Source of the DNA: Dehalococcoidia bacterium
GTDB lineage: Bacteria > Chloroflexota > Dehalococcoidia > UBA2979
Direction of reading: 5' to 3'
Assembly: GCA_964291495.2 (NCBI GenBank)
Contig: OZ219871.1
Coordinates: 992,001 to 1,056,000 of the forward strand
Length of the DNA: 64,000 bases
In this document: positions 28,986 to 50,777 of the stretch, piece after piece
How positions within the stretch are numbered: position 1 is the stretch's first letter
Layout: each line of letters begins with the position of its first letter
Made by a program: the position numbers and the translations under genes
The notes under the pieces: model-generated
What the model saw: the letters and a program-made list of their open reading frames with translations, nothing else
What the model was told of the DNA's origin: nothing
The model's database searches: none

Positions 28986-30296
28986 CTACCGCCCCACAGC
29001 ACCGTCCGGCACGTTGCGGGTGACGCCGAGGGCGGCGAGGTGGGCGATCTCGGACTCGGAGAGGCCTGCTACGTCGCGCAGCACCTCCTCGGTGTGCTCG
29101 CCGAGCATCGGGGCGGGGCGGGGCGTCCAGCCGGGGGTGCGGCTCAGCTTGAAGGGGCGGCTGAGGTGCGGGATCAGGCCCGCCGCCGGGTGGTCCACCG
29201 GCTCCCAGAAGCCGCGCGCCTCCAGCTGCGGGTCCTCCAGCAGCGTGTCGCCTCGATGCACCATGCCGGCCGCGACGCCGAGCGCCTGCAGCTGCTCCGT
29301 CAGCTCGCGCGACTCGCGCTCCCGCGTCCAGGCGGCGATCAGCGCGTCCAGCTCGTCGTGGCGGCGGCGCCGACTGAGCAGCGTCGCGAAGCGCGCGTCC
29401 GAGGCCAGCCCGGGGCCGCCGATTAGCTCCGCGAGCGCCTGCCACTCGGCGTCCGAGCGCACGGTGATCGTGACCCAGGTGTCCTCGCCCGCGCTCGGGT
29501 AGACGCCCTGCGGAGCGTGGACGTCGTGGCGGTTGCCCTGCGGCCCGCGCACGCGGCCGTTCATCGTGTAGTCCAGCAGCATCTCCGGCACGATCGAGGT
29601 CGTGACCTCGCGTTGCGAGAGGTCGACGAACGTGCCCTCGCCGGTGCGGTCGCGGCGGCGCACGGCCGCGAGGATCGCGCCGACGCCGAGCATCGCGACG
29701 ACCGGATCGGGGAAGAAGGTGCCGGAGGTCTTTGGCGGACCGCCGTGGTAGCCGGTGATCGAGGCGATCCCGGCGGTTTGCTCGAGGATCGCGCCGTATG
29801 AGCCGTAGGAGCGCTCCGGCCCCGTCGCGCCCTGGCTGGAGAAGGAGACGTAGACGATGTCCGGCTTCACCTCGCGGATCGCCTCGTAGCCCGCGCCGAG
29901 CCGCTCGAGCACCCCGAAGCGATAGCTTTCCGCGACCACGTCCGAGGCGGCGATGAGGCGCTTCAGCGTCGCGATGCCCTCGGGCATTGTGAGGTCCAGG
30001 CAGACGCCGCGCTTGCTGCGGTTGCGGTCGTTGAACAGGCCCGCGCGGTTCCACGGCTCGGCGCCGGGGTCGTCGTCGGGATAGATCGCGCTGCTCGCCT
30101 GCGGGTTGGGATCGCCTCGGGCGGTGTCCGTGCGGCGGCCGGACTCGACCTTGATCACGTCCGCGCCCATATCGCCGAGCAGCTTGAGCGCGAGCGGCCC
30201 CGCCCAGACCTGCGAGAGGTCGACGACGCGCAGCCCCTCGAGGGCGCCCCCTCCCACGCCACCGGAGGTGGTCTGCCCGGACTGCCCGGCAGCCAC
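28986..30296 (-). CDS. Family III CoA-transferase (catalytic Asp present)
   Basis: LEGLRVVDLSQVWAGP, NRSKRG, FFPDPVVA, APMLGEH. Confidence 0.9.
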   Translation of the reverse strand: MAAGQSGQTTSGGVGGGALEGLRVVDLSQVWAGPLALKLLGDMGADVIKVESGRRTDTARGDPNPQASSAIYPDDDPGAEPWNRAGLFNDRNRSKRGVCLDLTMPEGIATLKRLIAASDVVAESYRFGVLERLGAGYEAIREVKPDIVYVSFSSQGATGPERSYGSYGAILEQTAGIASITGYHGGPPKTSGTFFPDPVVAMLGVGAILAAVRRRDRTGEGTFVDLSQREVTTSIVPEMLLDYTMNGRVRGPQGNRHDVHAPQGVYPSAGEDTWVTITVRSDAEWQALAELIGGPGLASDARFATLLSRRRRHDELDALIAAWTRERESRELTEQLQALGVAAGMVHRGDTLLEDPQLEARGFWEPVDHPAAGLIPHLSRPFKLSRTPGWTPRPAPMLGEHTEEVLRDVAGLSESEIAHLAALGVTRNVPDGAVGR

Positions 30297-31492
30297 TAGA
30301 TCACCCCCGCGCCGCGCATCCGCGCGAGCTCGGCGGCGTCGCAGCCGAGCAGCTCGCCGTAGACCTCGGCGTTGTGCTCGCCCAGCAGTGGGGCGCGGCG
30401 CAGCGGCGGGCGCTCCGTACCGAAGCGCAGCGGCAGGCCGGGGTAGAGCAGCGGCCCCGTCGTCGGGTGGTCGACCTCGCCGAAGAACTCGCGCTCGATG
30501 AACTGGGGCGACTCGATCAGGTCGGGCGCGGTGCAGACGTAGCCGGCCGGCCCCTGCACGGCCTGCACGGCGTGGTAGAGGTCCGCCTTGCGCTTGCCCT
30601 CGGTCCATTCGGCGATGATCTCGCGCAGTTCGGCCATGTTGTCGCGGCGCTGCCGCGTGCCCTCGAAGCGCGGATCGTGCTCGATGTCGGGTCGCCCGAT
30701 CAGCTCGCAGAAGCGCGGCCAGCGGGCCTGCGGGAACATCAGCCCGATGTAGCCGTCGTCCACCTCGAACATCGGCGCGTGGCCGGGGCCCCGGACGCGA
30801 ATCTCGCGCTTGTAGGCCCAGGCCGCGCCCGGGTACTCCTGCGCCGTCGCGATGCCCTCGAGCATCGAGACGTCGACGTGCTGGCCCTCGCCCGTCGCAT
30901 CGCGGTAGTGGAGGGCGAGCAGCGCGCCGCTGAAGGCCGAGAGCCCAGCGAAGAACTGCGCCGGCCGCCCGCCGATCTTGAGCGGCTCGCGGTCCTCGTC
31001 GCCGGCGATGTAGAGCGAGCCACCGAGGGCGAGCGCCGTCAGGTCCGACGCCTCCCAGTCGCGGTACGGCCCGCTCTGCCCGTAGTCCGTGACCGAGACG
31101 ACGATCACGCCCGGCCGGGCCGCTTCGAGCGCCTCATGGCCGAGCCCCCAGGCGTCGAGCTGCCCGGGCGCGAAGTCCTCGATCACGATGTCGGCCCACT
31201 CGGCGGCGAGCCGCCGGGCGATGGCGCGGCCGGAGGCCTGCGCGAGGTCGAGGGTGACGCTGCGCTTGCCGGTGTTGAGGTAGAGGAACAGCCCGCTCAG
31301 CTCCGGATGCGGCTCGTCTCCGGCGAACGGCGGAGCGGAGCGCGCGCGGTCGCCTCGGCCGGGCGCCTCGACGCTGATCACGTCGGCCCCGAGGGCGGCC
31401 AGCAGCTTGGTGCAGAACGGCCCGGCGACGCCCTCGGAGAGATCGAGGACGCGGACGTCGTCGAGCGCCTCACTCGTCACGGGCAGCGCCAT
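30296..31492 (-). CDS. Family III CoA-transferase (catalytic Asp absent)
   Basis: VRVLDLS..VAGPFC, LNTGKRS, RPAQFFAG, APLLGEHN. Confidence 0.9.
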   Translation of the reverse strand: MALPVTSEALDDVRVLDLSEGVAGPFCTKLLAALGADVISVEAPGRGDRARSAPPFAGDEPHPELSGLFLYLNTGKRSVTLDLAQASGRAIARRLAAEWADIVIEDFAPGQLDAWGLGHEALEAARPGVIVVSVTDYGQSGPYRDWEASDLTALALGGSLYIAGDEDREPLKIGGRPAQFFAGLSAFSGALLALHYRDATGEGQHVDVSMLEGIATAQEYPGAAWAYKREIRVRGPGHAPMFEVDDGYIGLMFPQARWPRFCELIGRPDIEHDPRFEGTRQRRDNMAELREIIAEWTEGKRKADLYHAVQAVQGPAGYVCTAPDLIESPQFIEREFFGEVDHPTTGPLLYPGLPLRFGTERPPLRRAPLLGEHNAEVYGELLGCDAAELARMRGAGVI

Positions 31493-31542
31493 CGAGGCTC
31501 CCTCCGGCGGCGCTCACCTTACCGCGAGGCTCGCCCGGCCGC

Positions 31543-32830
31543 CTACGTCAGCGCCTCGATCTCCTCGGCGCTGAAGCCAGCCTCCGTCAGCACCTCGACG
31601 GTGTCGCGGCCGAGGGGCGGCGCCGCCCGGCGCGCGCCGGTCGCGCTCTCCGACATCTCGACGAGCGAGCCGACGATGCGCTCGGGGCCGGTCAACTCGT
31701 GCTCGAGGCTCGAGGTCGAGCAGCAGCCCCAGCGCCTCGAGCTGCGGCTCGTCGGCGACCTCCTCGGGCAGGTTGACCCGCGAGGCGGGCGCGCCGGCCG
31801 CGTCGAGCGCCTCCATCCACTCGTCCATCGTGCGCTCGCGCATGATCGCGCGGATGCGCTCGCGGACCTGTTCGATCACCGGCCAGTTGTCGGGGTCGAG
31901 CGCGTTGAAGTCCGGATCGGCGGTCGGGTCGTCCTCGATGCCGAGGGCGGTGCGGATCTGGTCGCGGTTCTCCGCGCTGACCGCGCCGAGCACGATCGCG
32001 CCGTCGCGCACGGGGTAGCCGTTGGTGTAGAGCAGCCCGGCCGCGTTCTGGGTCAGCACCTGCAACCCGCGCGTCTCGAGGATCTCGCGGTAGCCGCCGC
32101 CGGCCTCCCGCACCGCGCGCACGCGCTCCAGCATCGGGCCGCTGGTCACGGCGTCGACGGCGGGGAGGCGGGAGACGTAGTAGGAGAGCAGGGAGACGGC
32201 CGTCGCCACCAGCGGCGCGCTGATGTACTGACCGCGGCCGGTGCGTTCGCGCCGGAAGAGCGCCGCGCAGACTCCCATCGCGCCGGCGATGCCGCCCGCG
32301 TAGTCGGAGAGCACCGTGCTGCTCATGCGCTGCGGCGCGCCGAACTCGTCGATCTTGCTCTCGGCCGCCATGAGGCCCGTGTAGGCCTGGATCACCACGT
32401 CGCCGCCGGGCCGCTGCGCGTCCGGGCCGCGCGTGCCGTAGCTGGTGTGCTCGACGTAGATCAGGTCCTCGCGCAGCCCTCGCAGCGTCTCGTAGTCGAT
32501 GCCGAGGCGCTGCGGCACGCCGGGGCGGGCGTTGATCACGAACACGTCGAAGCCCGGCGTCAGCCGGCGCAGCGCCTCGCGCGCCGCCTCCTGCCGCAGA
32601 TCGAGGACGACGCTGCGCTTGCCTCGGTTGAGCGTGTGGAAGAGCTTGCTCTCGTTCGGCGCGAAGCCGGCGAGCCGGCGCGTCGGGTCGCCGCCCGGCG
32701 GCTCGATCTTCACCACCTCCGCGCCGAGGTCGGCAAGGTTCTGCGCGCAGTAGGGCCCGACGACGTGCGTGCCCACCTCGAGCACGCGCACGCCCTCGAG
32801 AGCGCCCCCGTCGAGCAGCGGCTCGGTCAT
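31543..32830 (-). pseudogene. Family III CoA-transferase frameshifted by a 7-bp tandem duplication
   Basis: LEGVRVLE, LNRGKRS, LSDYAGG; C-terminus HELTG...APPLGRDTVEVL is in another frame after CTCGAGG x2 at 31702-31715. Confidence 0.8.
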
Positions 32831-32849
32831 CGCCAGCCCGGCTCCCGCG

Positions 32850-33803
32850 CTACTTGATCGCGTAGGCGTTGGGCGGCGAGCCGACACCGCCGAGGATGTT
32901 GAGCGGCGAGGAGACGAGCATGAACTCGTAGACGCCGTCCTCGGCGCAGTCGGCGGCGAGCGGCGCGAGGTTGAAGTACTCGCCGATCGCGATGCCGAGC
33001 ATCGGCAGCAGGCGGCGGTGCTGGAAGCCCTCCTCGGGCTTGACGTGCAGCGCCTCCATCGCGTGCGTGTCGGCGGCCACCGCGCTGATGCCGCGGTTCC
33101 AGAGCCACGCCGCCGTCTCGCGCTGGCCGTCGAGGCCGGGCGCCTGCATCCCCTCCGGCGTCGGCGCGACCGACCCCTGCAGGGCCATCCGCGTATCGAG
33201 GTCGAGCGAGAGCAGCCACTCGAGCCAGCCGGTGTTGAGCAGCAGCGTGTCGCCGGGCTCGATCGCCACGCCCTGCGCCTCCGCGATCTCCTCGATCATC
33301 GGGCCGGTGATGGCGAAGCGCTCGTCGGGCGCGCAGTCGTAGTGGCGTTTCGCGTCGATCAGCACGCCGCGGCCGACGATGCCGCGCTCGGCCCACTGGT
33401 CGATGCCGCACTCGCGGCCCTCGTTGACGTCCTCGTCCTGGCGGCCGCCCCAGTAGCCGTACTGGCGGTAGCGCACGTGGGCGAGGGCGTCCCACTGGCT
33501 GGAGCCCTGCAGGAAGAAGCCGTCGACCCAGTCGTCGCGGGTCTGGCGGCCGGTCTCGATGTGGTGGACGAAGCGCGTGCGGTGGCTGAGCGGCGGGTCC
33601 GGCTCGTTGAGCGGCAGATCGAGGTTGATCACCTTGCCCGTGCGCACCAGCCGGGCGGCGGCCACGACGTGCTCCGGGGTCACGCGGTTGAAGGAGCCGA
33701 CCTGGTCGTCGCGGCCCCAGACGTCCCAGGCGTGGCGCTCCTCGCTGCCCTCGTCCATGGTCGGCAGATCCTCGAAGGCGGGCGTTCCGGTCGCTGGCGG
33801 CAT
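32850..33803 (-). CDS. Cyclase family (kynurenine formamidase-like) metal-dependent hydrolase
   Basis: SSQWDALAH, GIVGRGVLID, GDTLLLNTGW, IGEYFNL, GSPPNAYAI. Confidence 0.85.
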   Translation of the reverse strand: MPPATGTPAFEDLPTMDEGSEERHAWDVWGRDDQVGSFNRVTPEHVVAAARLVRTGKVINLDLPLNEPDPPLSHRTRFVHHIETGRQTRDDWVDGFFLQGSSQWDALAHVRYRQYGYWGGRQDEDVNEGRECGIDQWAERGIVGRGVLIDAKRHYDCAPDERFAITGPMIEEIAEAQGVAIEPGDTLLLNTGWLEWLLSLDLDTRMALQGSVAPTPEGMQAPGLDGQRETAAWLWNRGISAVAADTHAMEALHVKPEEGFQHRRLLPMLGIAIGEYFNLAPLAADCAEDGVYEFMLVSSPLNILGGVGSPPNAYAIK

Positions 33804-39873: not shown

Positions 39874-42351
39874 ATGGGCGAGCTCGAAGCGCCGCTGACC
39901 GGCATCCGCGTGCTCGATCTCGGGCAGGCCGCCGTCGGCCCGGTCGCCGCCGAGTACCTTGCGTGGCTCGGCGCGGACGTGATCAAGGTCGAGTCGCCAC
40001 AGGGCGACATGGTGCGCAACACCCGGCCCGAGCTGCGCGGCATGGGCCACACCTTCCTCGGCAACAACCTCGGCAAGCGCGGGATCGTGCTCGACCTCAA
40101 GCAGCCCGAGGAGTTCGCGCGAGGCGAGGACCTGATCCGCACCGCCGACGTGCTGATCGAGAACTTCCGCTCGCCCGCCGTGATGGAGCGGCTGGGCCTC
40201 GGCTGGGAGCGCTTGCAGGAGCTCAACCCGCGCCTCATCTACCTGCAGAGCTCCGCCTTCGGTCCCGTCGGGCCGATGGTCGGCATGACCAGCAACGAGT
40301 GGTTCTCGCAGGCCGCCGGCGGGGCGACCAGCCTCAACGGCCAGTCCGGCGGCCCGCCCGAGTTCTCGCGCGGAACGCCCTCGATCGACTGGAACGGGGC
40401 GGCCGTCAACCTCGAGGCGCTGCTCGTCGGGCTGTGGGTGCGCGAGCGCACCGGCCGAGGGCTGCGCATCCACAACTCGCAGCTGCAGTGCACGATGTTC
40501 GGGGCGACCACGCGGATCGCCGAGTACCTCGCGACCGCCGAGCCGCCGCCGCGGCTCGGCAGCGCGCGCAGCAACATCGTGCCGGACCAGGCGTTCGCCA
40601 CCGCCGAGGGCTACGTGGCGGTGAGCGCGCTCAACCAGCGCCTCTGGACGCGGCTCTGTGGGGCCCTCGAGCGCCCGGACCTCGCCGCCGACCCGCGCTT
40701 CGCGAGCAACGCACTACGCGTCGAGAACCGCGAGGCGCTGATCCCGCTGCTGGAAGCGGCCTTCGCCGAGCGGAGCGCCTCGGAGTGGGTGGAGCGGCTG
40801 CACGCCGCCCGCGTCCCGGCCTCGGAGGTGCTGACCGGGCTGCCGCTGATCGAGGGCCTGCTGGCGCATCCGCAGGCAAGCGGGCAGCGCTTCCTCAGCG
40901 TGATGGACACGCCCTGGGGCGACATGGGCACGGCCGAGCCGCACTGGCGCTTCGACAAGTCCCGCGCGCGCATCACCAGCCCCTCGCCCGCGCAGGGCCA
41001 GCACACCGACGAGGTGCTGCGCGAGCTCGAGGACGAGGTGGCCGCGCTCCCGCCTCCGGCGCCCGTCGCGCGCATCGGCGCGCGCGGCAACGGCGCCACG
41101 GCGGCAAGCGATGACGCCGCGCCCGCCCTCGCGGGCCTGCGCGTGCTCGACCTCTCGCAGGGCGTCTCCGGCCCGATCTGCGCGATGCAGCTCGGCGACC
41201 TCGGCGCGGACGTGATCAAGATCGAGCCGCCCGAGGGCGACTGGATCCGCGAGATCGGCCCATTCCACACTCCGGCAGAGGGCGAGCCGGAAAGCGCGCT
41301 CTACCTGCAACTCAACCGCAACAAGCGCGGCATCGCGCTCGACCTCAAGTCGCCCGAGGGCAGGGCCGTCCTCGAGCGGCTGCTCGACGGCGCCGACGTG
41401 CTGCTCGAGGGCTACCGGCCGGGCGTGATGGAGCGCCTCGGCCTTGGCTACGAGGAGCTCTCGAAGCGCTATCCGCGGCTGATCTACCTCTCGATCAGCG
41501 GACAGGGCGCCGAGGGGCCGCTGGCCGAGGCGCCCGCGAGCGAGCTGGACGTGCAGGCCGTGGTCGGCTCCAACCGGCACCTCGGTCGGGCGAGCGAGCC
41601 GCCGGTCCGCTACGGCTACGACCTCGCCTCGGTGGGAGCCGGCATCGCCGGCGTGCACGGGGTGCTGACGGCGCTGCTCTGGCGCGAGCGGAACGGCCTC
41701 GGGCAGCACGTGCAGACCTCGCTGCTGCAGACCTTCATCGCGATGCACCAGTGGACGATCAGCGCGGAGCTCGCCGTCGAGGATCGCGTCGGCCGCCCCC
41801 TCACCGGCGCCGACGAGGAGCCCGACCACGGCTTCGAGACCGCCGACGGCCACGCGCTGATCACGATGCGTGGCGACGAGGGCGCCTGGGCCAAGTTCCT
41901 GATCGCCATCGACCGCCCCGAGGTGCTCCTCGACCCGCGCTACGAGGCGCCGGACACGCTGATGCGCAACCTGCACCTGCTGCCGCCGCTGGTGAACGAC
42001 CGCACGCGCCAGATCCCCTTCGAGGAGCTGCGCACGCTGGTGCAGGACGAGCTCGGCTACACGATCGTGCGCATGCACGACCTGCGCTCGCTGCTCGCGG
42101 ACGCGCAGACCGAGGCGCTTGGCATGATCCAGACGATCGAGGGCCACCCCACGCTCGGCCCGCTGCGCACGCTCAACGTCCCTTGGGGCTTCGAGGATGG
42201 CCTCGCCTCGCTGCGCCTCCCGCCGCCGCTGCTCGGCCAGCACGGCGCCGAGGTGCTGGCGGAGGCTGGCTACGAGGAGGCGGAGATCGCCCGCCTCGCG
42301 GAGTCGGGCGCGGTGCGCCTCGCGCCTCGGGCGGCGCTCGCCGGGGCGTAG
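39874..42351 (+). CDS. Tandem (two-domain) family III CoA-transferase
   Basis: Two L.G.RVLDL domains, NLGKRG and NRNKRG, P..GQH x2. Confidence 0.9.
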   Translation: MGELEAPLTGIRVLDLGQAAVGPVAAEYLAWLGADVIKVESPQGDMVRNTRPELRGMGHTFLGNNLGKRGIVLDLKQPEEFARGEDLIRTADVLIENFRSPAVMERLGLGWERLQELNPRLIYLQSSAFGPVGPMVGMTSNEWFSQAAGGATSLNGQSGGPPEFSRGTPSIDWNGAAVNLEALLVGLWVRERTGRGLRIHNSQLQCTMFGATTRIAEYLATAEPPPRLGSARSNIVPDQAFATAEGYVAVSALNQRLWTRLCGALERPDLAADPRFASNALRVENREALIPLLEAAFAERSASEWVERLHAARVPASEVLTGLPLIEGLLAHPQASGQRFLSVMDTPWGDMGTAEPHWRFDKSRARITSPSPAQGQHTDEVLRELEDEVAALPPPAPVARIGARGNGATAASDDAAPALAGLRVLDLSQGVSGPICAMQLGDLGADVIKIEPPEGDWIREIGPFHTPAEGEPESALYLQLNRNKRGIALDLKSPEGRAVLERLLDGADVLLEGYRPGVMERLGLGYEELSKRYPRLIYLSISGQGAEGPLAEAPASELDVQAVVGSNRHLGRASEPPVRYGYDLASVGAGIAGVHGVLTALLWRERNGLGQHVQTSLLQTFIAMHQWTISAELAVEDRVGRPLTGADEEPDHGFETADGHALITMRGDEGAWAKFLIAIDRPEVLLDPRYEAPDTLMRNLHLLPPLVNDRTRQIPFEELRTLVQDELGYTIVRMHDLRSLLADAQTEALGMIQTIEGHPTLGPLRTLNVPWGFEDGLASLRLPPPLLGQHGAEVLAEAGYEEAEIARLAESGAVRLAPRAALAGA

Positions 42352-43228: not shown

Positions 43229-44410
43229 ATGTCGATTCGCGGGAAGGCGGCGATCGTCGGGTTCAGCGAGCTCCCGACGCTGCGCCAGTACGGCGAACGG
43301 AGCACCACGGGCCTCCTCGCCGAGGTCGCCCGGGACGCGATCCGCGACGCCGGAATGCGCAAGGACGACATCGACGGCGTGATCAACCGCGAGGACGTGA
43401 ACTCCCTCGAGCTCTGCGAGGCGCTCGGCATCAGGCCCCGCTATACCTCCTCGATGACCACGCACGGGGCGAGCGGCGCGGCCTCGATCCTGACAGCGGC
43501 GATGGCCGTCGCCTCTGGCGTCGCCAGCAACGTGCTCTGCATGCTCGGCCAGTCGCGGCCGGCCAGCGCGACGCGGCTCGAGGCCGGGGCGGGCGCGCGT
43601 GGCGGCGGCGGCCCGGCCAACATCCTCACGGAGTGGGAGGCGCCGTTCGGCACCGTGATCGCCGCCAACGGCGGCTACGGGATGATCAAGGCGCGCCACA
43701 TGCACGAGTTCGGCACCACGCAGGAGCAGTTCGCCAAGTGCGCCGTCGACCAGCGCTTCAACGCGCTGCGGAACGAGAACGGGCTCTGGAAGGACCCGAT
43801 CACCATCGACGACGTGCTCAACTCGCGCTTCGTCAACGACCCGCTGCACCTGCTGGAGTGCGTGATGCCGTGCTCCGGCGCGAACGCCGTGATCGTCACC
43901 AGCGCGGAACGCGCGAGGGCGTTGCCGAACCCGCCCGTCTACATCCTCGGCGTGGGCGGACCGGCGACCAGCCACAGCGTCGTCTGGCAAAACGACAGCA
44001 TCACCACCACCCCGGTCGTGCAATCCGCCCCGGTGGCGCTGCAGATGGCGGAGTACAGCGCGCGCGACATCGAGTTCGCCCAGTTCTACGACTGCTACAC
44101 GATCCTCGCGATGATGTGCCTGGAGGACGCCGGGATCTGCGCGAAGGGCGAGATCGGGGCCTTCTACGAGAGCACGGACACGACCTACGAGGGCGACTTC
44201 CCGATCAACACCGACGGCGGCCAGATCTCGGCGGGCCAGCCCGGCGGCGGCGCCGGCGGCTTCCGCCACGTGGTGGAGGCGACCCGCCAGATCATGGGCC
44301 GAGCCGGGGTGAGGCAGGTGAAGAAGGGCGACCTCTGCCTTGTCAATGGCTGAGGCGGCACCGGCAGCGTCATGACGACGCTGGTGCTCGGTTCGGGCGC
44401 CACCCTCTAA
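43229..44410 (+). CDS. Thiolase-like (SCP-x/Ltp2/DitF-type) protein with in-frame UGA at 44351-44353
   Basis: AAIVG, FYDCYT, PINTDGGQIS; frame continues past TGA as GGTGSVMTTLVLGSGATL-TAA(44410), completing the fold's last strand. Confidence 0.85.
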
Positions 44411-44443
44411 CTCCAGCAAGCAAAGACCACACCGAGGTCCACG

Positions 44444-44863
44444 ATGGCCGAATACGAGAAGCCTCTCCCGCGACAAGCAGACCCTGCGCTCACACAGCCC
44501 TTCTGGGACGCGGCGAAGCGCCACGAGCTGGTCCTCCCGCGCTGCCTCCAGTGCAGCCGCCACTTCTGGTACCCGCGGCAGGCCTGCCCGCGCTGCCTGA
44601 GCCCGGACTGGGAGTGGACGAAGGCGAGCGGCCGCGGCCGCCTCCACACCTACACGATCGTCCGCCAGCCGCAGAACCCCGCCTTCAACGACGACGTGCC
44701 CTACGCCTACGCGATGGTCCAACTCGACGAGGGCGTACGCATGATCTCGAACCTCGTCGACGTCGAGGTCCCCGACGGCGTGCGGATCGACATGGAACTC
44801 GAGGTGACGTTCGAGGACGTCACCGAGGAGTGGACGCTGCCGCGCTTCCGGCCCGCGTCGTAA
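44444..44863 (+). CDS. DUF35 Zn-ribbon/OB-fold protein (thiolase partner)
   Basis: PFWDAA, CxxC...YPR..CPxC, SGRG.LHTYT, VQLDEGVRM. Confidence 0.9.
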   Translation: MAEYEKPLPRQADPALTQPFWDAAKRHELVLPRCLQCSRHFWYPRQACPRCLSPDWEWTKASGRGRLHTYTIVRQPQNPAFNDDVPYAYAMVQLDEGVRMISNLVDVEVPDGVRIDMELEVTFEDVTEEWTLPRFRPAS

Positions 44864-44878: not shown

Positions 44879-45292
44879 TCAGCGCTGCGGAGCCCCCTGC
44901 TCCAGCAGCGCCAGCGCGGCCTCGGCGGCACGGCCGGCGTAGGCGACGTACTCGGCCGGGCTCAACTCCTCGAGGGGTACGCGCAGCTCCGAGCGGGTCG
45001 TCGCCGGGTCGTCGGTGTCGAGCTGGTCGGCCTCGAAGCCGATACGCAGCTCGTAGAGGCCGCCGTCCTCGCCCAGCACGACGCAGCCGGGGGCGTCCTC
45101 GGCCTGGCCGCCCGGCGGCGGCTCGACCTCGATACCGTAGGAGAAGAACGAGCCGGGGTACTCCGGGAACGGGTCGAACGAGGCGGCGATCTCGCGCAGC
45201 AGCTCGCGGTACTCCCGCGCGGCCTGCTCCATGATCGCGTCGGCGTGCGCGCGGAAGCGCAGCGTCCCCCCGCTCGCGGCCTGCCCGCTCAT
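44879..45292 (-). CDS. Hypothetical protein
   Basis: 137 aa ORF with typical high-GC3 codon use. Confidence 0.6.
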   Translation of the reverse strand: MSGQAASGGTLRFRAHADAIMEQAAREYRELLREIAASFDPFPEYPGSFFSYGIEVEPPPGGQAEDAPGCVVLGEDGGLYELRIGFEADQLDTDDPATTRSELRVPLEELSPAEYVAYAGRAAEAALALLEQGAPQR

Positions 45293-47305: not shown

Positions 47306-48019
47306 TCAGCCGTAGCGCTGGCGCAGCTCGTCGCGGACGCGCTGCGCCAGCGGCTCGGTCAGCGCGCGCAGATCGCCGGCGAGGCGCGCGCCCTCGAGGA
47401 AGGCGTCGAGGGTGGCGATCGTCTCGAGGCCGCGCGTGCGGGCGTGTTCCTCGTTGGTCGCGCGGAAGCCCTGCAGCTTGCGCGGGCCCTCGCGGCCGCC
47501 CTCGGAGATGTACCAGTCGCGGAACGCCACGCCGCAGCCGAGGTCGAAGAGCAGCGCGCCGAGCGGCGTGGCGACGGGCGGCACGTCGGCCGCCAGCGCG
47601 CGCGCCGTGCTCGCCCGCGGGCGCGAGTCGTACTCCGCCATCAGGTGCCCGCCCGCCGGGACGAGGCCCGCGAGCTGCCCGAACAACGCCCGCTCGACCT
47701 CGGGCGATACGGGCTGCACGCCTCCGGCGGCGAGCGGCGGCGCGTCCGTGTAGTCGAGCACCTCGATCCAGTTGAAGCCGGGAAACGGCCCGGAGTTCTG
47801 CAGCCCGAAGATCACGGGCGCGGACGTCGGGCCCTCGGGGCCGTCGAGGATGCAGCGGAAGTAGGTCGAGCCGACGGAGCTGCGCGGCCCGAGCAGCACG
47901 ACGAGCCGCAGCCCCCCGACGAGCGAGGCGCCGTCGATGGGCGCGAGCGGGTGTTCGGGACGCTCGGACGCGGGCTGCCAGCGCCCGTCGGCGGGGTCGC
48001 CTCGCGGTGTCGTGGTCAT
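47306..48019 (-). CDS. DUF1122 family protein
   Basis: NWIE, GGHLMAEY, TPLG, FRDWYISEGGREGPRKLQG. Confidence 0.75.
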   Translation of the reverse strand: MTTTPRGDPADGRWQPASERPEHPLAPIDGASLVGGLRLVVLLGPRSSVGSTYFRCILDGPEGPTSAPVIFGLQNSGPFPGFNWIEVLDYTDAPPLAAGGVQPVSPEVERALFGQLAGLVPAGGHLMAEYDSRPRASTARALAADVPPVATPLGALLFDLGCGVAFRDWYISEGGREGPRKLQGFRATNEEHARTRGLETIATLDAFLEGARLAGDLRALTEPLAQRVRDELRQRYG

Positions 48020-48099
48020 GCCCGCGACGCTAGCACGGGCGGTCGGGGTGGGCGAGCGCGGCAGTCCGCCCCAAACGGGCGAAGGGCTATCCTCGCACC

Positions 48100-49476
48100 A
48101 TGACCACCACCCCGCCCGGCGACCTCCCGGACGACGCCACCCTCGCGGCCTACGCCGAGGCCGTGCGCGGCCTGCTCGCGCGCGGCGGCTACGAGCGCAG
48201 CGGCGATCCACGCGAGGCGAAGCGCTTCCGCCTGAGCCACATCGAGGCGTTCCTCGAGGCCGCCGGACGCCCGGACCGGCGGCGCACCGTCCACATCGCC
48301 GGCTCAAAGGGCAAGGGCTCGACCGCGGCGCTGGTCGAGGCGCAGCTGCGCGCCGCCGGCGCGCACACCCTGCTGCTCACCTCGCCCGATCTGCACCAGG
48401 CCCGCGAGCGCGTGCGCATCGACGGCGAACCGCTCGGCCACGCCGCCTTCGCCCGCCTCGCGCGGGCGTTGCTGGACGACGCGGCGACCGAGGGCTGGTC
48501 CTACTTCGAGCTGCTGACCGTGCTCGGCTGGCTCGCGGGCGCGGAGGCCGGCTGCGACTGGCAGGTGCTGGAGGTCGGCCTCGGCGGGCGGCTGGACACG
48601 ACGAACGTCGTCGCCGCCTCGAAGGCGGTCGCCGTGATCACCCCGCTCGACCTCGAGCACACGGCGATCCTCGGCGACACGATCGAGCAGATCGCGGCGG
48701 AGAAGGCGGCGATCATCCGCGCGCCCGGCGCCGCCGTCGCCGCGCCGCTGCGCGAGCGCGCGCTCGACGTGGTGCGCGCGCGGGCATCCGAGGTGGGCGC
48801 GACGCTGCACGAGGTGGCGGCCGAGTGCGCGCTGCGGGTGACCGCGCAGGGTCTCGACGGGCAGACGCTGGACCTGCGCACGCCGCTGCGCACCTACCGG
48901 CGGCTGCGGCTGCCGCTGATCGGCCGCCACCAGGCGGAGAACGCGGCGACAGCCGTGCGCGCGGCGGAACTGGCGTGGGACGCCGCCGGAGGCGAGCTGC
49001 CCGAGGCGGCCGTGCGCGACGGTCTCGCCTCGGTGCGTTGGCCCGGACGCTTCGAGGTGCTGCGCCAGCGCCCGCTGGTGGTGCTGGACGCGCTGCACAC
49101 GCCGCTCGCGGCGGAGCGGTTCCGGGAGACCCTGCGCGAGCTGCCGCTGCCCCATCCGCATGTGCTGGTGGCTGGCCTGCTCGCCGGCCGCGACGTGCCG
49201 TTGCTGGCCGCGCCGCTGCTCACCGGCGGCGAGACCGTGATCGTCGCCCCGCCGTCCTCGGAGCGGGCGGCCGATCCCTCGCAGGTCGCCGCCGCCTTCG
49301 CCGCGGCGGGCGCGGTCGTGCAGCAGCAGCCGAACGTCGCGGCCGCCCTCGCTCTGGCGCGCGCGCTGGCCGGCGAGGGGGGCGCCGTCTTCGTCGTCGG
49401 CAGCCTCTACACCGTCTCCGAGGCACGCGAACAGCTCCTCGGTGTGAGCGGGGACCGCGCACTCGGGTTGCGCTAG
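48100..49476 (+). CDS. folC: Folylpolyglutamate/dihydrofolate synthase
   Basis: HIAGSKGKGST, TSP.L...RER, EVGLGGRLDTTNV, LEHTAILG, WPGRFE, GSLY. Confidence 0.92.
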   Translation: MTTTPPGDLPDDATLAAYAEAVRGLLARGGYERSGDPREAKRFRLSHIEAFLEAAGRPDRRRTVHIAGSKGKGSTAALVEAQLRAAGAHTLLLTSPDLHQARERVRIDGEPLGHAAFARLARALLDDAATEGWSYFELLTVLGWLAGAEAGCDWQVLEVGLGGRLDTTNVVAASKAVAVITPLDLEHTAILGDTIEQIAAEKAAIIRAPGAAVAAPLRERALDVVRARASEVGATLHEVAAECALRVTAQGLDGQTLDLRTPLRTYRRLRLPLIGRHQAENAATAVRAAELAWDAAGGELPEAAVRDGLASVRWPGRFEVLRQRPLVVLDALHTPLAAERFRETLRELPLPHPHVLVAGLLAGRDVPLLAAPLLTGGETVIVAPPSSERAADPSQVAAAFAAAGAVVQQQPNVAAALALARALAGEGGAVFVVGSLYTVSEAREQLLGVSGDRALGLR

Positions 49477-49514
49477 ACTGTGGCCCGGTAATCGGTCACG
49501 TCGATGGAGGCCGG

Positions 49515-50777
49515 ATGACGCAACGCAATGGCAGGGATCGCCGCGTTGTCGTGACCGGCATGGGCGTGATCTCTCCCCTCGGCAGCACCGTCGACGAGCT
49601 GTGGGAACGCGCGCTCAACGGCGAGTCCGGCATCACCGCGCTGACGGCGATCGAGCCCGGCGACTACCCCTGCAAGGTCGCCGGGCAGGTGCATGACTTC
49701 GAGCCCAACGAGTGGATGGACCGCAAGGACGCGCGCCGCATGGCGCGCTTCTCGCAGTTCGCGATCGCCGCCGGCAGGCAGGCGATTGCCGACGCCGGAC
49801 TGGACCTCGAGGCAATCGACCGCCACCGTGCCGGGGCGCTGCTCGGCACCGGCAACGGCAGCCTGCCGCACGCCGACCAGGCGATGCGCACGATCCTCAG
49901 CCGCGGCGGGCACCGCCTCGACCCGCTCTATATGGCGAAGATGCTGCCGAACATGGCCGCCGGAAACCTCACCATCCAGCTCGGCCTGCGCGGCTACACC
50001 AACACCGTGACCACCGCCTGCGCGGCCGCCACCCAGGCGATCGGCGACGCGACCGAGGTGATCCGCCGCGGCCACGCCGACGTGATGCTGGCCGGGGGCA
50101 CCGAGGCCGGCATCTCCGAGCTGGGACTCGCCGGGTTCTGCGCGATGCGCGCCCTCACCACCTCCTACAACGACCGCCCCGGCGAGTCGTCACGCCCCTT
50201 CGATCGCGACCGCGACGGCTTCGCCCCCTCGGAGGGCGCGGGGGTGCTGGTGCTCGAGGAGCTCGAGCACGCCCGCGAGCGCGGCGCAGAGCCCCTCGCC
50301 GAGGTGGCCGGATACGGCGTCACCGCGGACGCGACCTTCCTCGTCGCGCCGCCCGAGGACGGCGGCGGCGCCGCGCGCGCCATCCAACTCGCCATCGAGG
50401 ACGCGGGCATCACCCCGGGTGAGGTCGACTACATCTCCGCCCACGCCACGGCGACCGAGGTCGGCGACATCGCGGAGACGCGGGCGATTCGCTCGGTCTT
50501 CCGCGAGGACGCGGATCGCATCCCCGTGACCGCGTTCAAGTCCCAGATCGGCCACCTGCTCGGGGCCGCGGGCGGCGTCGAGGCGGTGGCGGCCGTCCAG
50601 ACGCTGCGCACCTCGACGATCGCGCCGACCATCAACCTCGAGAACCCCGATCCCGAGTGCGACCTCGACTACGTCCCGCTCCAGCCGCGCGGCGCCGATG
50701 TGCGCACCCTCGCCAAGAACTCCTTCGGCTTCGGCGGCCAGAACGCCGTGCTGATCCTGCGCCGCTTCGAGGACTGA
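49515..50777 (+). CDS. fabF: Beta-ketoacyl-ACP synthase II
   Basis: RRVVVTGMG, TACAA, SRPFDRDRDGF, AHATAT, KSQIGHLLGAAG, NSFGFGGQN. Confidence 0.95.
   Translation: MTQRNGRDRRVVVTGMGVISPLGSTVDELWERALNGESGITALTAIEPGDYPCKVAGQVHDFEPNEWMDRKDARRMARFSQFAIAAGRQAIADAGLDLEAIDRHRAGALLGTGNGSLPHADQAMRTILSRGGHRLDPLYMAKMLPNMAAGNLTIQLGLRGYTNTVTTACAAATQAIGDATEVIRRGHADVMLAGGTEAGISELGLAGFCAMRALTTSYNDRPGESSRPFDRDRDGFAPSEGAGVLVLEELEHARERGAEPLAEVAGYGVTADATFLVAPPEDGGGAARAIQLAIEDAGITPGEVDYISAHATATEVGDIAETRAIRSVFREDADRIPVTAFKSQIGHLLGAAGGVEAVAAVQTLRTSTIAPTINLENPDPECDLDYVPLQPRGADVRTLAKNSFGFGGQNAVLILRRFED

Follow-up and report, generated by a model that had tools for sequence, protein, structure and literature searches.

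A conserved in-frame TGA as a predicted selenocysteine codon in a thiolase-fold gene of a Dehalococcoidia bacterium

Does the TGA codon near the 3' end of a thiolase-like gene in an uncultured Dehalococcoidia bacterium end the protein, or is it read as selenocysteine (Sec)? The gene lies in a stretch of 64,000 nucleotides (nt) of contig OZ219871.1 (assembly GCA_964291495.2, positions 992,001 to 1,056,000), the whole of which we call the window, and is followed by a gene for a DUF35 protein. An initial annotation, made from the letters alone, suggested a Sec-dependent enzyme of thiolase or aldolase type. We consider it very probable that the TGA at codon 375 is a genuine, conserved Sec codon in a thiolase-fold enzyme that resembles the aldolase CtSal and probably pairs with the DUF35 protein. 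The Sec reading proposed in that annotation is supported by a conserved TGA column, the Sec machinery of the genome, a covarying hairpin behind the codon and the position of the residue, which is that of the CxG cysteine of classical thiolases. The coordinates of all features are collected in Table 1.

Homology runs through the TGA

The open reading frame (ORF) called with translation table 11 covers positions 43229..44353 and encodes 374 residues; with the TGA read through, the product has 393. The letters at the site are CTT GTC AAT GGC TGA GGC GGC ACC GGC AGC GTC ATG ACG ACG CTG GTG CTC, continued by GGT TCG GGC GCC ACC CTC TAA, with the TAA terminator at 44408-44410, and the frame reads LCLVNG*GGTGSVMTTLVLGSGATL*, with the 18 sense codons between TGA and TAA that the initial annotation had described. 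The Pfam Thiolase_C_1 match covers residues 245-388 (profile positions 2-143 of 144), and the NCBIfam PRK06158 match covers residues 3-393, up to the last profile position. Both matches extend beyond the TGA, indicating that homology runs through it. In the predicted structure, the turn and the final strand (residues 382-388) of the C-terminal domain are built from the tail. The earlier view that the TGA is probably not the true end, as the tail supplies the GG turn and the final strand of the fold, therefore agrees with the profile matches and with the CtSal alignment, which crosses the TGA as well. In the source genome TGA is an ordinary stop, terminating 6 of the 20 Pfam-supported ORFs of the window and also a non-Sec paralogue of the gene (L072).

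The TGA and the tail are conserved in relatives

A search of 99 genomes of the order gave matches at E <= 1e-60 in 58, and 66 loci were fetched, namely the top 30 by score, 20 more that were flagged with a TGA and 16 flagged without one. Matches from 97% down to about 44% identity carry a single internal TGA, with alignments reaching residue 389-393. The 49 TGA-bearing loci, from 39 genomes, were chosen because they had been flagged with a TGA beforehand, and in all 49 the TGA stands at the same column (375, right after ...VNG). The TGA form occurs in 41 of the 99 genomes, verified by sequence in 39 and supported by the search flag only in two (G080 and G083). Together with 15 loci from the class-level sample described below, the stop codon at column 375 is TGA in 64 of 64 cases, never TAA or TAG. 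Behind it, the 49 order-level Sec genes share the in-frame tail GGxxSxMxxLVLG, which is closed by TAA or TAG in 48 of 48; in the remaining case (L034), the contig ends before a terminator is reached.

For 32 distinct sequences of the closer clade, the entropy of the tail by codon position is 0.285/0.179/0.758. The nucleotide identity in 32 sequences is 82.9% in the tail, compared to 69.6% in the 18 preceding codons and 32.0% in the 54 nt past the true stop. The codon periodicity and high identity of the tail, set against the unconstrained sequence after the stop, indicate that the tail is under coding selection.

Among the best 120 public protein clusters, 106 end at ...VNG and 1 at ...YD, 10 are full length and 3 are other fragments. 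The relatives with names are metagenome-assembled genomes labelled Chloroflexi or Dehalococcoidia bacterium, and the truncated forms carry the NCBI product name 'thiolase family protein'. Column 375 of the 17 fetched order-level loci without TGA holds Asn (12), Ser (3) or Pro (2), and that of the 10 full-length database proteins Asn (6), Ser (1), Cys (2) or Val (1). Neither Trp nor Arg is found there in any homologue, fetched or from the database.

The source genome itself includes two further Sec paralogues with the TGA at the same column (L053, C5:687274-688416, and L069, C5:178843-179997; 70% and 44% identity) and three paralogues with Asn375 (L072, C5:712051-713187; L077, C8:108866-110023; L078, C1:121798-122979). 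The L072 protein reads YDPY where the Sec genes have YDCY.

Contigs of the probable source sequencing run cover the TGA site with no differing letters. Contigs from two runs of two other studies span the whole stretch at about 95-96% identity, and no change at 44351-53 is among the 40 of their 117 difference rows that were listed. RNA-library contigs touch only positions 43406-43584 and 44772-44863, which gives a weak hint of transcription and says nothing on recoding.

The genome encodes the selenocysteine machinery

The initial annotation had pointed out that no sel genes are present in the window. All of them are found elsewhere in the source genome (3.08 Mb, 8 contigs, 93.7% complete), which encodes SelA (425 bits), SelB (302 bits), SelD (368 bits) and a tRNA-Sec (77 bits) that ARAGORN calls SeC with the anticodon tca. 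The selD gene (C5:1608812-1609747, minus strand) carries an in-frame TGA in the motif ...SCGG-U-AGK..., so that by its sequence SelD is itself a selenoprotein in this genome.

SelA is detected in 39 of the 41 order genomes with the TGA form. The other 23 genomes of the order that lack SelA include none with the TGA form, and five of them have only non-TGA homologues. This co-occurrence is given without a P value because related genomes are not independent.

A covarying hairpin follows the TGA

The 21-nt core of the hairpin downstream of the TGA has a folding energy of -11.8 kcal/mol (z -3.73), which none of 200 shuffles equals, and the 48 nt from the TGA onwards fold at -24.8 kcal/mol (z -3.08, 1/200 shuffles as good). 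Over 35 distinct sequences, the core is paired in 91.9% of the cells, compared to 79.3% in shuffles (0/500 as high) and 14-55% in controls with a slid register. Three of the six core stem pairs show double changes (CG/UA, UA/AU and GC/CG/AU), which affect non-synonymous as well as synonymous sites, several of the latter being third positions, so the covariation analysis suggested in the initial annotation speaks for the downstream hairpin. A second hairpin that had been drawn just upstream of the TGA, at 44311-44341, does not stand out from chance (z -0.59, 55/200 shuffles as good).

Most Sec genes have a hairpin with an energy of about -8 to -9 kcal/mol; clades in which the register is displaced by 2 nt reach about -6, three Sec genes (L041, L059 and L061) range from -4.8 to -5.6 kcal/mol, and the median of the 17 non-TGA homologues is about -2.9 kcal/mol. 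The Asn paralogue L071 encodes the same peptide, SVMTTL, with the stem broken (-3.3 kcal/mol, compared to -8.9 in its Sec sisters). The Asn paralogues L071 and L072 provide the best control for the hairpin. The hairpin behind the Sec codon of the source-genome selD gene has its loop starting at +19, a spacing similar to the +21 of the thiolase-fold gene.

The predicted structure resembles CtSal, not a true thiolase

The AlphaFold2 model of the 393-residue protein has a pLDDT of 87.3 and a pTM of 0.89. The nearest solved structure by sequence is 9myr_A (E 7.9e-73), followed by 4u4e and 6ok1, and the same three lead the fold comparison of the model, with 9myr_A as the best match (TM 0.87, 37% identity). 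PDB ID 9MYR is CtSal, a retro-aldolase of Comamonas testosteroni that acts on bile-acid side chains, with the DUF35 domain of Shy as its partner in the complex (PMC12329534). Residues were mapped with a HMMER alignment to 9myr_A, in which the chain numbering is the residue number plus 24.

The protein shares with CtSal the Gly at the nucleophile site, the Y-D-C-Y motif with its catalytic Tyr and Cys, two activating Gln, the G-G oxyanion turn and, as far as gene order predicts, a DUF35 partner. The study of CtSal, which defined the catalytic set by mutagenesis, reports that Tyr302 and Cys304 of Y-D-C-Y are essential, that Gly89 takes the place of the thiolase nucleophile and makes thiolysis impossible, that Gln347 and Gln352 are proposed to activate Cys304 and that the oxyanion hole is formed by Gln161 and the backbone NH of Gly391 (PMC12329534). 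G80, YDCY and both Gln are kept in all 49 order-level Sec genes, and U375 stands two residues before the glycine aligned with Gly391. CtSal differs in having Thr389 where the source protein has Sec375, and no Sec at all. Its DUF35 domain is fused to a MaoC hydratase (Shy), whereas that of the source is a free-standing protein of 139 residues with a four-Cys zinc ribbon. Furthermore, the host here is an uncultured Dehalococcoidia bacterium, with no steroid-degradation genes near the gene.

In thiolases, Cys378 is oriented towards C2 of the substrate rather than towards the carbonyl carbon, and the cysteines of the HDCF and CxG motifs are spatially equivalent. Classical thiolases are marked by the CxS Cys, the NEAF Asn (or the His/Cys of HDCF) and the GHP His (PMC3406046, PMC7682436), and by the CXG fingerprint of residues 378-380, in which Cys378 is the proton-abstracting base (PMC3406046). 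The source protein has the same fold as these enzymes (Zoogloea ramigera Cys89, Asn316, His348 and Cys378), and Sec375 aligns at the position of the acid/base Cys378, which bears out the earlier assignment of the TGA loop to the second catalytic cysteine. The other three of the four fingerprints differ, with G-A-S for CxS, YDCY for NEAF and G-Q-P, with Gln337, for GHP. The nucleophile site reads H79-G80-A81-S82-G83 without a Cys, as had been noted from the letters, and with the nucleophilic Cys89 replaced by Gly, thiolytic chemistry through this residue is impossible. An N-G-G variant of CXG is known in thiolase-like proteins such as MsTLP1 (PMC3406046), providing a counterpart of the Asn in the non-Sec relatives.

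Gly80 at the nucleophile site, the missing GHP histidine and the CtSal-like set of Tyr, Cys, Gln and Gln indicate that the protein is a thiolase-fold, aldolase-like enzyme of the Sal/SLP type and not a true thiolase. The aldolase half of the earlier proposal is therefore retained and the thiolase half is not. By homology, Sec375 would lie beside the catalytic Cys289.

The other characterised relatives, the steroid C3 side-chain aldolase TcLtp2-ChsH2(DUF35) (PDB ID 6OK1) and TbSLP (PDB ID 5AB4-7), likewise have the thiolase fold but no nucleophilic Cys. A DUF35 domain is bound to Ltp2, and the motif of SLP is YDCF, but Ltp2 differs by YDHF and by Tyr344, where the source protein has Gln. The identity in the fold alignment is 28% for Ltp2 and 23% for SLP, and neither has Sec.

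A second predicted Sec site is coupled to the first

We extended the search to a class-level sample of 301 genomes (>= 80% complete), 94 of which have a match at E <= 1e-70; this tally counts one unpublished genome, G313, on which no other result rests. Many class-level matches show two in-gene TGA flags. The 20 loci fetched include 10 with TGA at both 375 and 289, 5 with TGA at 375 only and 5 with Asn375 and no internal TGA. In two genomes (G253 and G291), the flagged TGA is the terminator of a gene with Asn at column 375, and only sequence-verified cases were therefore counted outside the order. Sec forms are verified in this way in seven families of the class.

The double-TGA genes (10 of the 20 loci; nine genomes from other Dehalococcoidia families) read Y-D-U-Y, which places Sec where CtSal has its catalytic Cys. 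The TGA289 is also followed by a hairpin, with the loop CGUG(U/A) from +20 and one covarying GC/CG pair. Of the 11 pairs of this hairpin, 8-11 are formed in the 10 genes with TGA289, compared to 3-9 in 10 non-TGA genes. Some genomes have tandem copies (e.g., G206 C143 and G102 C6), either two double-Sec genes or a double-Sec gene with an Asn copy.

Cys or Sec is found at 289 in all 64 genes with U375, and column 289 shows a clear Cys/Sec alternation in the relatives. The two full-length database proteins with Cys375 (P0063 and P0073) carry Gly at 289 (YDGY), which looks like a shift of the catalytic thiol to the second active-site loop. A quick maximum-likelihood tree built from 86 distinct sequences requires at least 7 changes of the state 'U at 375'. 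It contains five cases of Asn forms within Sec clades (L050, L071/72, L077/81, L121 and L122), and in two of these five replacements residue 289 is changed as well, to Pro or Ala. Judged by these sequence patterns, sites 289 and 375 behave as a functional pair.

Weighing the evidence

Several observations weigh against a Sec codon with a catalytic role at 375. Two of the 41 TGA-carrying genomes lack a detected SelA (G049, 92% complete, and G081, 73% complete); SelA is found in 7 of 8 and 4 of 5 genomes of their respective genera. The Sec/Cys alternation at column 375 is weak, with Asn in most cases (12 of the 17 fetched loci) and Cys in only 2 of the 10 full-length database proteins. Asn is incapable of selenol chemistry, and given its presence in relatives, Sec375 may not be a nucleophile or an essential acid. 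The initial annotation had asked for a conserved TGA alternating with Cys and had named Asn among the residues speaking against Sec. The conserved TGA was found, the alternation at 375 hardly so, and Asn did occur, but the other evidence and the Cys/Sec alternation at column 289 count for more. With respect to the hairpin, the apical loop AUGAC lacks the early G (first or second loop position) of the common bacterial model of the selenocysteine insertion sequence (SECIS), as the annotation itself had cautioned. The register varies between clades by 2 nt, and an Rfam search of positions 44250-44500 gave no match up to E 10, a result that is uninformative for bacterial SECIS elements. The annotated core (44366-71/44377-82, loop ATGAC) holds, but the lower stem (GCACC 44358-62/GGTGC 44383-87), although present here, is paired in only 70.9% of the cells of the relatives and has no convincing covariation. 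The model is less certain around the Sec loop, with a mean pLDDT of 71 for residues 371-380. Finally, the gene context beyond the DUF35 gene is variable and holds no MaoC hydratase or steroid genes.

The simplest alternative is that the TGA is the true terminator of a 374-residue protein and that the conserved tail and the hairpin have another role, such as termination, attenuation or the coupling of its translation to that of the DUF35 gene. The public gene calls that stop at the TGA (106 of the best 120 clusters) and the normal use of TGA as a stop in the source genome would agree with this, but the tail is codon-periodic and more conserved than the 18 codons before it, the sequence past the TAA is unconstrained, and the profile and CtSal alignments continue past the TGA over the rest of the fold, where the oxyanion-hole Gly and the last strand lie. 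As the stop at column 375 is moreover always TGA (64/64) and the TGA forms track SelA, we regard a true terminator as highly improbable. The other assembly problems that the initial annotation pointed out in the source might suggest that the TGA arose by faulty sequencing or assembly, or by a recent nonsense mutation in a pseudogene, and the copy in G079 is split with an extra TAG. The same TGA is nevertheless present in 39 sequence-verified genomes of the order, in two more by flag and in six further families of the class, at 44-97% protein identity. The contigs of the probable source run agree with it, and for those of the two other studies no change at the site is among the 40 of 117 difference rows listed. 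The comparative sequence data can be taken to have already refuted this explanation, to which we give practically no chance.

Another possibility is that UGA375 is decoded by a near-cognate tRNA for Trp, Cys or Arg, and that the hairpin is a generic stimulator of read-through. The rarity of Cys at column 375 and the loop, atypical for the common SECIS model, would fit, but SelA is present in 39 of the 41 carriers, the two TGA-carrying genomes without it being incomplete, and neither Trp nor Arg occurs at the column in any homologue. The spacing of the hairpin is similar to that behind the SelD Sec codon of the same genome, and the second recoded site replaces a catalytic Cys, which is the classical Sec/Cys signature, leaving this explanation very unlikely. 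The remaining alternative accepts Sec and takes the protein for a genuine thiolase, in which Sec375, or the 289/375 pair, is the covalent nucleophile. The thiolase fold and the excellent nucleophilicity of a selenolate are in its favor, but all 49 order-level Sec genes have Gly in place of the nucleophile, the oxyanion-hole His of GHP is Gln, Sec is replaced by Asn in nested paralogues, and a residue at this position would face C2 rather than the carbonyl carbon. Column 375 corresponds to the acid/base Cys378 (PMC3406046), and CtSal, the nearest characterised relative, is reported to be incapable of thiolysis (PMC12329534). We consider a genuine thiolase unlikely and retain the reading of TGA375 as a Sec codon in an aldolase-like enzyme.

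Proposed mechanism

According to our proposal, SelB with Sec-tRNA(Sec) would bind the hairpin 15-31 nt downstream of UGA375 and outcompete release factor 2, and the ribosome would then add the 18 codons that build the active-site G-G turn and the last beta-strand. By homology, the selenol of Sec375 would point at the alpha-carbon of the bound acyl-CoA, beside Cys289. By analogy with CtSal and Ltp2, the enzyme may act as a dimer with DUF35 proteins on its flanks, and it would cleave or form a C-C bond of a CoA thioester via an enolate, with retro-aldol cleavage of a beta-hydroxyacyl-CoA as the most likely reaction.

Residues 289 and 375 would form a chalcogen pair, Cys-Sec in the source gene and Sec-Sec in relatives, which might serve as a proton relay to the enolate or cycle through a selenenylsulfide. 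The replacement of Sec by Asn argues against Sec375 as an obligatory covalent nucleophile. The second Sec in place of the catalytic Cys, and the constant chalcogen-chalcogen combination of 289 and 375, point to a cooperative or redox role.

A more speculative idea, to which we give a small chance, is that the Cys289-Sec375 pair (Sec-Sec in relatives) is redox-active and sits over the alpha-carbon of the acyl-CoA, turning an aldolase scaffold into a reductive lyase. Sec would attack C-alpha or an alpha/beta substituent while the oxyanion hole holds the enolate, and a selenenylsulfide or diselenide would form and be re-reduced by a thiol system, similar to glycine/proline-reductase-type chemistry on CoA thioesters. 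If this were true, such reductive lyases, expanded to several paralogues in each genome of Dehalococcoidia of marine or sponge-associated origin, could help to attack recalcitrant organic matter.

Relation to known selenoproteins

To our knowledge, the bacterial selenoproteins described so far are, with few exceptions, oxidoreductases or proteins with thiol-redox motifs. The gene described here resembles bacterial selenoprotein genes with a SECIS within the ORF, such as fdhA and the selD of the source genome, in its in-frame UGA, a loop starting about 19-21 nt downstream, a truncated database annotation and the predicted dependence on SelA, SelB, SelD and tRNA-Sec. It differs from the catalogued selenoproteins, which are dominated by families of the thiol-oxidoreductase type, in being a presumed C-C lyase on CoA thioesters and in having mainly Asn rather than Cys at column 375 of its non-Sec homologues.

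The most comprehensive inventory by its own description, Table 1 of a 2026 review (PMC13188914), comprises 119 families and subfamilies. A text search of this review, including Table 1, found no thiolase, ketoacyl, acetyl- or acyltransferase, aldolase, lipid or DUF35 entries and none of the families PF22691, PF02803 and PF00108, in line with the earlier remark that this is not a recognised standard type of selenoprotein. We also searched main texts that include a 2022 review with a family table, deep-Sep, BSepDB, GOS and a preprint on eight new families; the word 'thiolase' is absent from the main texts of PMC9312934, PMC12013277, PMC13326102, PMC2398784 and the preprint 10.1101/2022.07.06.499078, a search that covered neither the supplementary family list of BSepDB nor Peng et al. 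2016. Full-text literature searches gave no paper on a Sec-containing thiolase or acetyl-CoA acetyltransferase. Within the literature searched, this would be standard bacterial Sec recoding in a fold and active-site setting that is not listed among the known selenoproteins.

The sequences describe what is almost certainly a widespread family of selenium enzymes in Dehalococcoidia that is cut short in the databases. The family is large, with 107 of the best 120 clusters truncated at a Sec codon and three Sec paralogues in the 3.1-Mb source genome. Its annotation as a shortened 'thiolase family protein' means that metabolic models of Dehalococcoidia and SAR202-type bacteria misread it. The mostly Asn non-Sec state at 375 exposes a blind spot of search methods based on Sec/Cys homology. 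Sec in the active site of a thiolase-fold C-C lyase for CoA thioesters would, if true, widen the known catalytic uses of selenium. With its variants carrying one Sec, two Sec, Cys or Asn, the family offers a mutational series made by nature around the Cys recently shown to be catalytic in CtSal, making the roles of this residue and of Sec directly testable.

Gene context and further observations

Table 1. Features of the thiolase-fold gene and its DUF35 partner (window positions)
Feature	Position	Strand	Remarks
Thiolase-fold (Sal/SLP-like) predicted selenoprotein gene, complete	43229..44410	+	393 codons and a TAA stop; codon 375 is the TGA (predicted Sec)
G80	43466..43468	+	CtSal Gly89; position of the thiolase nucleophilic Cys (CxS -> G-A-S); alignment
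Y287-D288-C289-Y290 (YDCY)	44087..44098	+	Y287 = CtSal Tyr302, C289 = CtSal Cys304
Q332 and Q337			CtSal Gln347 and Gln352; alignment
In-frame TGA, predicted Sec U375 (motif N-G-U-G-G)	44351..44353	+	CxG position of classical thiolases; aligns with CtSal Thr389
G377			CtSal Gly391; alignment
18-codon tail GGTGSVMTTLVLGSGATL	44354..44407	+	Translated only with TGA recoding; active-site GG turn and last beta-strand (residues 382-388, model)
Core of the SECIS-like hairpin, AGCGUC / loop AUGAC / GACGCU	44366..44382	+	Starts 15 nt after the U of UGA, apical loop at +21; fold energy and covariation
DUF35 partner gene, 139 residues, zinc ribbon and OB fold	44444..44863	+	33 nt after TAA; Pfam OB_ChsH2_C 5.9e-22, zf-ChsH2 4.1e-11

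The Pfam matches confirm the DUF35 gene named in the initial annotation. A DUF35 gene also follows the homologue in three of four other loci examined (L099, L102 and L103); the fourth, from a paralogue clade (L094), is followed by an SDR gene, and no DUF35 ORF of >= 130 residues was found there. The neighbours in the window are family III CoA-transferases, MFS transporters, a SnoaL-like gene and an FBPase, and no hydratase genes (including MaoC) or steroid genes are found in it. A crotonase-type hydratase gene lies 2-3 kb away in two distant loci only (L099 and L102).

The five family III CoA-transferase domains of the window are located at 28989-32887 on the minus strand, as three single-domain genes, and at 39874-42348 on the plus strand, where an 825-residue ORF holds two complete domains in one chain (CoA_transf_3, 612 bits). 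Directly after the DUF35 gene, on the opposite strand (44882-45292, minus), there is a 137-residue ORF with no Pfam match at E <= 1e-6. A 946-residue ORF at 47937-50774 (plus strand) has a C-terminal beta-ketoacyl synthase and overlaps a Mur-ligase ORF (48100-49473, plus strand) in another frame; it is probably an over-extended start call, which is typical of DNA with 71.5% G+C.

The split orthologue in G079 (C4:339056-340235), which has an extra TAG besides the TGA and gives two overlapping matches, is probably a pseudogene or an assembly fault in that genome.

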